Shown here piece after piece: positions 18,192 through 41,233 of a stretch of DNA of 64,000 nucleotides (position 1 is the stretch's first letter; each line of letters begins with the position of its first letter). Source of the DNA: Escherichia coli (lineage in GTDB: Bacteria; Pseudomonadota; Gammaproteobacteria; Enterobacterales; Enterobacteriaceae); assembly GCF_003790525.1 (NCBI RefSeq), contig NZ_CP033635.1; one strand, written 5' to 3'. The notes beneath the pieces were generated by a model. That model saw only the letters and a list, made by a program, of their open reading frames with translations, was not told the origin of the DNA and made no database searches. A program made the translations under genes and the position numbers.

Positions 18192-19235
18192 TTAATCGCT
18201 AATTTTAATAACGCCTTTAATAATGTCGCGTTTGTTGTTAACTGACTCTTCAAATGCCTGTTGTACATCCCGATAATCGTAAATATGCGTCACCATCGAT
18301 TTCACATCGAATCGCCCTGAAGAAATAGCTTCAATCGTGACCGGATAACGATTGGCATAGCGGAATACCGTCTGGATAGTGACTTCGCGATTGATTTTGA
18401 GGAAATTGATTGCCGAATCGCCCGGTACAGTACCAACAATCATAATTTTACCGCCGCGCATTACCAGATAAGGTGCCTGTTTAACGGTGACCGCAGAACC
18501 TGCTGTTTCGAAAACAATATCTGCGCCCATTTCTTCGGTAAATTGCTGACAGCGTGCAATAGTGTCTTCTTTTGCGCCGTTAATAACCACTGTCGCGCCG
18601 AGCTGTTCCGCCATTGTCAGACGTTTTTCCAGCACATCAACGACGGCAATATCCGTAGCTCCCAGGCATTTGCACGCTTGCAACGTCATCAAACCAATAC
18701 AACCTGCTCCCAGAATAATTATCTTCTTACCCGGTTTAACATCTGCCAGCATCGCGGCATGCATCCCGACTGCGGCAGGCTCCACCAGCGCCCCTTCCAT
18801 CGTGTCCATATTGTCTGGCAGTTTGTAAGTAAAGCTCTCCGGATGACACAGATAGTGCGTTAATGCGCCGCGGTAGTTGGGTTGTGTCGCCATAAAATCA
18901 ACGTCCGGGCAAATGTTATATTTGCCTTCCAGACAGTAACGACAGTGACCGCAAGGAACGCCAGGTTCGATATTTACCCGATCCCCCGGTTTAAATTTGC
19001 GCACGCGGCTTCCCACAGCCACAACCGTCCCGGCGCATTCATGACCCAGGCCAATTTCTTGATTTGGGTCTTTAGGCGGAATAAACGGGCCTGATTCAAA
19101 ACCATGTACATCTGAACCACAAATACCGACATATTCTACTTTAATCAAAACTTCATCTTCTTTAGGCACAGGCATTTCTGCTGAAATAATTTTCATTGTG
19201 CCCGGCACCTGCAATATTGCTTTTGAATTTTTCAT
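18192..19235 (-). CDS. ydjJ: Zn-dependent polyol/alcohol dehydrogenase
   Basis: 347 aa; Zn-ADH motif GHECAG and Cys-rich structural zinc site. Confidence 0.88.
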   Translation of the reverse strand: MKNSKAILQVPGTMKIISAEMPVPKEDEVLIKVEYVGICGSDVHGFESGPFIPPKDPNQEIGLGHECAGTVVAVGSRVRKFKPGDRVNIEPGVPCGHCRYCLEGKYNICPDVDFMATQPNYRGALTHYLCHPESFTYKLPDNMDTMEGALVEPAAVGMHAAMLADVKPGKKIIILGAGCIGLMTLQACKCLGATDIAVVDVLEKRLTMAEQLGATVVINGAKEDTIARCQQFTEEMGADIVFETAGSAVTVKQAPYLVMRGGKIMIVGTVPGDSAINFLKINREVTIQTVFRYANRYPVTIEAISSGRFDVKSMVTHIYDYRDVQQAFEESVNNKRDIIKGVIKISD

Positions 19236-39807: not shown

Positions 39808-39990
39808 TTACCAACCACAAACATCATGTTCGTTTTCCGTGTCATAAGAACGCACGGTATTCACCAGATCTTTTATCACTTCAGCCGCCACTTCTGGCAC
39901 CAGCAAAGTCATCGGCGTCTCTGTTTCATAATCGACAGAAACGCCATTGCTGTTATTGGTGACGGTCACGGTATACGTTGCTTTGCCCAT
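39808..39990 (-). CDS. yoaG: DUF1869 family protein
   Basis: 60 aa; directly downstream of yeaR (4-bp gap), same strand. Confidence 0.8.
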   Translation of the reverse strand: MGKATYTVTVTNNSNGVSVDYETETPMTLLVPEVAAEVIKDLVNTVRSYDTENEHDVCGW

Positions 39991-39993
39991 GAT

Positions 39994-40353
39994 TCATTTC
40001 CCGTTATGAATGACTTTCCGTTGTTGCGCACCTTCCATCAGGACTTCAGGGGCAACGAAGAAGTCAATGTTGAAATAAGTATCGTCAGTCATGGCTTCAA
40101 TGTTGTGCCACTTTTCTGGAGGGAACACCGCAAACTGCCCCGCTTCGATAAGGATCACTTGATCAGGCTCTGTACTGTGTTCATCAGCGTAGCCGAGATA
40201 TTTGACCGCCCCATGCATAACGGAAAGGCGTGGGTAAACCCCCGGGCGCGTTCCTTTATCAAGATGACGTTCGAATATTCCGGCAGGCGCAGTTTGTTTA
40301 TTCCAGAAAGGCGTTGAGCGCGTATGAATATAATTCTGTGGGATTTGCAGCAT
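39994..40353 (-). CDS. yeaR: DUF1971 family protein
   Basis: 119 aa. Confidence 0.85.
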   Translation of the reverse strand: MLQIPQNYIHTRSTPFWNKQTAPAGIFERHLDKGTRPGVYPRLSVMHGAVKYLGYADEHSTEPDQVILIEAGQFAVFPPEKWHNIEAMTDDTYFNIDFFVAPEVLMEGAQQRKVIHNGK

Positions 40354-40419
40354 CCTTTTCCCTCCTTCGGTGAATGCGCTGAAAACGGTTTATTTCAGCC
40401 GTTTCAGGGTACGCCTGAT

Positions 40420-40442
40420 AATTTGCATTTTAAATACCATTT
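40420..40442. promoter_or_regulatory. NsrR-like 11-1-11 inverted repeat upstream of yeaR
   Basis: AATTTGCATTT-T-AAATACCATTT resembles the NsrR consensus AAGATGCATTT-N-AAATGCATCTT (9 of 11 and 7 of 11 matches); 67-89 bp upstream of the yeaR start. Confidence 0.35.
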
Positions 40443-40525
40443 ATTGGTTACTATTTAGCACCGTATCAGAGAAAAATCAGGGAGGATTACAGATGGGAAG
40501 CCCGCGACAACGCGGGCTGAAAGCA

Positions 40526-41233
<708 letters not shown>

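Follow-up and report, generated by a model that had tools for sequence, protein, structure and literature searches.

In this study, we asked what role an imperfect palindrome upstream of yeaR plays in the control of the yeaR-yoaG pair of Escherichia coli, and whether the repressor NsrR by itself would account for that control. The window, by which we mean the whole 64-kb stretch of DNA that was analysed, had been described in a first-pass annotation as carrying an 11-1-11 palindrome that approximates the NsrR consensus 67-89 bp upstream of the yeaR start, and from this it had been proposed that a two-gene unit of DUF proteins is under nitrosative-stress control. We conclude here that the 23-bp palindrome is very probably the NsrR operator of the yeaR-yoaG promoter, at which NsrR most likely blocks both RNA polymerase and the activator NarL and from which it would be released by nitric oxide (NO). 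The site is already known as a published NsrR operator of yeaR-yoaG and is not new; what the analysis adds concerns its statistics, its conservation and its overlap with the NarL site.

The palindrome and its published record

The 901-bp stretch around the palindrome is 100% identical to E. coli SMS-3-5 in a genome comparison and is matched in 5419 of 5426 complete E. coli genomes. In the SMS-3-5 RefSeq record the local gene order is dgcP, yoaK, yoaJ, yeaQ, yoaG, yeaR, leuE, dmlR and dmlA, and the palindrome lies in a 172-bp intergenic region, with the end of leuE at 40526 in window coordinates. The features of the control region are collected in Table 1. The description of yeaR-yoaG as a two-gene unit of DUF proteins is borne out by the Pfam assignments given there, and the solved structures of YeaR (PDB 3BB6) and YoaG (PDB 1NEI) were deposited as 'Uncharacterized protein yeaR' and 'hypothetical protein yoaG', respectively. 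The 60-bp core promoter is found at an identity of at least 95% in 5416 of the 5426 complete E. coli genomes and is missing from 10, and in the same genome collection the yeaR region occurs in two to three copies on records classed as plasmids. The promoter in the window has the K-12 MG1655 sequence from about -52 to +4, and the few differences between the strains, at about -54 and further upstream and at +5, fall outside the NarL and NsrR sites; because of this promoter identity, the data obtained with K-12 apply to the window.

Table 1. Features of the yeaR-yoaG control region in window coordinates; promoter positions are relative to the predicted transcription start.
Feature	Position	Strand	Description	Basis
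NsrR operator (very probable)	40420..40442	minus	11-1-11 inverted repeat, -43 to -21, centre 40431 (-32)	Published-site identity, matrix score, conservation
NarL 7-2-7 activator site	40435..40450	minus	TAACCAATAAATGGTA	Exact match to the site in PMC10853779; conserved in most orthologues
Predicted weak -35 hexamer	40429..40434	minus	TTTAAA, 4/6 to TTGACA; wholly within the NsrR operator	Placed from the -43.5 anchor
Predicted -10 hexamer	40406..40411	minus	TACCCT, 17-bp spacer from the -35 hexamer	Placed from the -43.5 anchor
Predicted transcription start (+1)	40399	minus	G; 45-nt 5' UTR	Arithmetic from the NarL centre at -43.5; about 1 nt uncertainty
Hairpin at the predicted 5' end of the yeaR transcript	40378-40399	minus	+1 to +22, 7-bp stem	
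yeaR CDS	39994..40353	minus	119 aa, DUF1971 (Pfam); ATG at 40353; first operon gene	Annotated in SMS-3-5 RefSeq
yoaG CDS	39808..39990	minus	60 aa, DUF1869 (Pfam); second operon gene	Annotated in SMS-3-5 RefSeq
Hairpin next to leuE	40499-40518	minus	8 nt past the leuE stop codon	

On the plus strand the palindrome reads AATTTGCATTTTAAATACCATTT, which in the orientation of yeaR corresponds to AAATGGTATTT-A-AAATGCAAATT. The palindrome agrees with 16 of the 22 positions that the NsrR consensus AAGATGCATTT-N-AAATGCATCTT specifies and departs from it at the other 6, and its arms are symmetrical at 8 of 11 positions; elsewhere in the 64-kb window there is no position within 7 mismatches of this consensus. 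With the yeaR ATG at 40353 on the minus strand, the palindrome lies 67-89 bp upstream, exactly as had been described, and the observation is confirmed.

The match, the position and the conservation of the site were all computed in this study. The score is based on a symmetrised weight matrix for which 25 distinct NsrR sites of strain CFT073 (Table 4 in PMC5320621) were used and the yeaR entry was left out. The palindrome scores 22.3-22.5 bits with this matrix of 25 other published sites, inside the range of 12-31 bits covered by the training sites themselves (n=25), and ranks first among the approximately 64,000 positions of the window; in 200 first-order Markov simulations of the window, this score was never attained. 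Exact enumeration gives a per-position P of 1.0e-8 for this score, which corresponds to 7e-4 expected sites per 64 kb and about 0.05 per 5 Mb. For the 172-bp intergenic region the expectation is 2e-6, and it rises to 1.4e-5 when the background is set to 60% A+T. The runner-up in the window, at 18240-18262 (AACTGACTCTTCAAATGCCTGTT, 16.5 bits), lies in the 3' end of a minus-strand open reading frame (18192..19235); being inside coding sequence, it was set aside as a second NsrR operator and is probably a chance match.

The reverse complement of the palindrome, AAATGGTATTTAAAATGCAAATT, is identical at every position to the NsrR site that Mehta et al. (2015) give for yeaR in their Table 4 (PMC5320621), where its PatSer ln P is -17.05, and this paper was the sole match in a literature search with the letter string of the site. 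A site with this score is not exceedingly rare on the scale of a genome, where the published value implies, by our own arithmetic, a few tenths of an expected site, and this speaks in favour of a chance match within an intergenic region rich in A+T. The likelihood of such a chance origin is nevertheless negligible, since only 2e-6 to 1.4e-5 sites of this score are expected in the intergenic region, the palindrome ranks first in the window and the gene downstream of it is NO-induced according to the literature; the 26 orthologous loci described below all carry it at the equivalent position, which effectively refutes this explanation.

In the same paper yeaR is introduced as 'known to be regulated by NsrR', for which Lin et al. 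(2007) and Filenko et al. (2007) are credited, and the two genes are among the most induced in nitrate-grown CFT073, yeaR by 160-fold and yoaG by 168-fold; in the CFT073 ChIP-seq data for NsrR no peak falls at yeaR, a result that the authors take for a probable false negative (PMC5320621). It has also been published that yoaG is NO-responsive in Salmonella, later papers place yeaR-yoaG in both the NsrR and the NarL regulons, and the yeaR promoter is widely used as a nitrate and NO biosensor part. As a discovery, the palindrome therefore carries little weight, as the site, its regulator and the response to NO and nitrate have been in the literature since 2007, the year in which Lin and colleagues reportedly analysed the NarL and NsrR contributions at yeaR by mutation. 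Both the earlier publication of the site and the lack of a yeaR peak in the CFT073 ChIP-seq data go beyond the first-pass annotation, whose interpretation of the palindrome as an NsrR operator, and of yeaR-yoaG as being under nitrosative-stress control, is supported by the sequence statistics, by conservation across genera and by the literature.

Promoter anatomy and overlap with the NarL site

The position of the palindrome within the promoter can be read against a published structure. In cryo-EM work on the activation complex that NarL forms at the yeaR promoter (Kompaniiets et al., 2024; PMC10853779), the NarL 7-2-7 site TAACCAATAAATGGTA is centred at -43.5, and the authors put it 'just upstream' of a -35 element that they call 'intrinsically weak'. 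The copy in the window consists of the two inverted heptamers separated by a 2-bp gap, the evidence for binding of a dimer coming from the same work. We derived the hexamers and the start site given in Table 1 from the published -43.5 anchor, and an offset of about 1 nt is possible because elsewhere the NarL site is given loosely as -38 to -47 (PMC4549865). The predicted +1 is consistent with the GAA transcript on the cryo-EM scaffold (PMC10853779), and the -10 hexamer is conserved in the alignment of orthologues, where it reads TACCCT, TAACCT or TACTCT. A consensus scan for sigma-70 promoters and terminators between 40300 and 40560 found nothing, and the lack of a consensus sigma-70 promoter is as expected, because the promoter is activator-dependent.

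On this anchor the palindrome covers the predicted -35 hexamer and so overlaps the core promoter, as far as the predicted start site places it. The palindrome and the NarL site overlap by 8 bp (40435-40442), and the promoter-proximal NarL heptamer lies inside the operator. Since the operator thus has 8 bp in common with the NarL site and takes in the -35 hexamer as well, yeaR-yoaG is under the combined control of nitrate through NarL and of NO through NsrR, and not of NsrR alone, a point that the first-pass annotation had missed. The overlap also has a practical consequence: engineering of the yeaR promoter for a response to nitrate only, or to NO only, must split the two sites by way of the right arm of the operator (-31 to -21).

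How the two regulators might work together on so short a stretch can be pictured from what is known of each. NsrR is an iron-sulfur repressor of the Rrf2 family, which loses its DNA binding upon nitrosylation of the cluster (PMC4601167), and NarL recruits polymerase at the yeaR promoter via the alpha C-terminal domain (PMC10853779). In the absence of NO, dimeric NsrR with its iron-sulfur cluster would sit on the 11-1-11 repeat from -43 to -21 and would cover the weak -35 hexamer together with the promoter-proximal NarL heptamer. Covering both elements, it would exclude the contact of sigma-70 region 4 with the promoter as well as phospho-NarL, and the promoter would be off; while the regulation by NsrR and NO and the activation by NarL at -43.5 are taken from the literature, this steric competition is what we infer from the overlap. 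NO generated by nitrite or nitrate respiration, or derived from the host, would then nitrosylate the cluster and take NsrR off the DNA, and in the presence of nitrate or nitrite phospho-NarL could bind at -43.5 and recruit polymerase through the alpha C-terminal domain.

Conservation across genera and hairpins near the promoter

A scan with the YeaR protein, restricted to one genome per species, gave 26 usable loci from Escherichia (whittamii, albertii and others), many Citrobacter, Salmonella enterica subsp. arizonae and diarizonae, and Silvania, and the 220 nt upstream of each yeaR ATG were aligned. In all 26 upstream regions the best match to the NsrR matrix falls at the aligned position, with 10.9-23.6 bits and with its centre 73-84 nt from the ATG, so that an NsrR-like site is present in every one of these orthologous promoters. 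Over the 21 non-Escherichia orthologues, the NsrR site has a mean identity to the window of 0.82 and the NarL site one of 0.89, as against values of 0.31 in the 50 bp upstream and of 0.40 in the 5' UTR. Part of this conservation has other causes, as 14 of the 23 positions of the palindrome also belong to the NarL heptamer or the -35 hexamer. The right arm (AAATGC..TT) is kept across genera, and it lies in the spacer between the -35 and -10 hexamers, where the promoter alone imposes little constraint on sequence; in Salmonella subsp. arizonae (15.0 bits) and diarizonae (10.9 bits) this arm has decayed. In Citrobacter sedlakii, two C. amalonaticus-like genomes and Silvania, unrelated sequence stands in place of the distal NarL heptamer, and the NsrR-like site is retained with a score of 20.5 bits or more. 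The left arm in Silvania is shifted towards the NsrR consensus (AAGTCGCATTT-T-AAATGCATTTT, 23.6 bits), and in C. sedlakii and the C. amalonaticus-like genomes (L007, L015 and L024) the sequence that replaces the distal heptamer is TGCCCCTTTTGGTGTA.

Three side observations came out of the same set of sequences. In L007, L015 and L024, the region upstream of the yeaR promoter (about 1290-1440) cannot be aligned with leuE, so the neighbouring gene differs there. The yeaR promoter and 5' UTR of a metagenome-assembled genome labelled 'uncultured Raoultella sp.' (L017) are nearly identical to those of Citrobacter braakii, which suggests that this contig is mis-binned or mislabelled. The scan also returned, from Alkalicoccobacillus porphyridii of the Bacillales (L028), a 234-bp contig with a coverage of 0.8 carrying a fragment 93% identical to E. 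coli YeaR, and this is most likely an enterobacterial contamination of the assembly.

These comparisons bear on the question of whether the palindrome could be a mere by-product of the NarL heptamer, the -35 hexamer and an A+T-rich spacer, with an indirect effect of NsrR on yeaR, for example through NO-dependent changes in other regulators. Such an origin would be in line with the 8 bp of the site that fall in the NarL 7-2-7 site and the 6 bp that fall in the predicted -35 hexamer, with the 6 mismatches to the 22 consensus positions and with the missing yeaR peak in the CFT073 NsrR ChIP-seq data (PMC5320621). We nevertheless regard it as improbable, because the right arm is conserved across genera although it lies in a spacer that is normally unconstrained, because at least 20.5 bits are retained where the distal NarL heptamer is gone and the left arm in Silvania has moved towards the NsrR consensus, and because a P of about 1e-8 was obtained with a matrix that did not contain this site; in addition, the literature has NsrR regulating yeaR (PMC5320621).

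It could also be argued that the conserved block is mainly the site of another competitor of NarL, such as the nucleoid protein Fis, and that the likeness to an NsrR operator is incidental. The A+T-rich sequence would suit Fis, and Squire and colleagues are said to have described, in 2009, a Fis site that overlaps the NarL site at -43.5. On the other hand, Fis sites are degenerate and would not give a 22-bit NsrR match or an 11-1-11 symmetry across genera, and binding of Fis and of NsrR is not mutually exclusive, so that we consider it very improbable that Fis accounts for the block in place of NsrR.

The transcribed side of the promoter shows a further feature. A 7-bp hairpin, GCUGAAA-loop-UUUCAGC, begins exactly at the predicted yeaR +1, and the whole yeaR 5' UTR folds with -12.5 kcal/mol, a modest z of -2.1. 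Folding of the Citrobacter and Salmonella orthologues one by one gave hairpins at the same place built from other sequences, for example CAGCGA/UCGCUG and GCAGCG/CGCUGC, which is suggestive. With RNAalifold, no consensus structure emerged for the 5' UTRs, as these lineage-specific hairpins come to lie out of register in the sequence alignment. Together, this hints at a conserved 5'-terminal stem-loop on the yeaR transcript, which, if true, would be a sign of a post-transcriptional element not described so far, such as one stabilizing the 5' end.

At the other end of the intergenic region, next to leuE, there is a G+C-rich hairpin, AGCCCGCG-TTGT-CGCGGGCT, and compensating changes preserve it in both Citrobacter and Salmonella (GGCCCGC...GCGGGCC). 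The hairpin was not called by the terminator scan because it is without a T-run; it is probably the leuE terminator and would as such shield the yeaR promoter from read-through.

Taking the comparison of the orthologues one step further, we put forward, tentatively and as a possibility that we ourselves hold to be rather doubtful, that the NsrR operator is the universally retained core of the yeaR promoter and that the NarL layer is lineage-specific; in the species without the distal NarL heptamer, yeaR would then respond to NO alone. Separately, and with the same reserve, the 5' hairpin may be a post-transcriptional element of its own.

Comparison with known systems

The yeaR-yoaG control region of K-12 (Lin, Bledsoe & Stewart, 2007; Squire et al., 2009; Kompaniiets et al., 2024, PMC10853779) is the same locus as the one in the window, with an exact NarL 16-mer, and there is no difference of substance between the two. 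Another promoter that is activated by NarL independently of FNR is that of ogt, where, as at yeaR, a NarL 7-2-7 site abuts the -35 hexamer. The two differ in that two tandem NarL sites are needed at ogt, and in that an overlapping NsrR operator is not described for ogt in the literature covered.

On the NsrR side, the closest relatives are the E. coli operators of ytfE, hmp, hcp and ygbA, which follow the 11-1-11 repeat AAGATGCATTT-N-AAATGCATCTT (Bodenmiller & Spiro, 2006; Partridge et al., 2009; Mehta et al., 2015). The yeaR site is weaker than the ytfE operator, with its 6 mismatches in 22 positions, and in contrast to the four operators it is embedded in a NarL activator site and was missed by ChIP-seq in CFT073. 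It nevertheless has the same 23-bp architecture, the ATTT-N-AAAT core and GC/GY at the centres of the arms, and like these operators it is located in the promoter, where binding of NsrR would repress.
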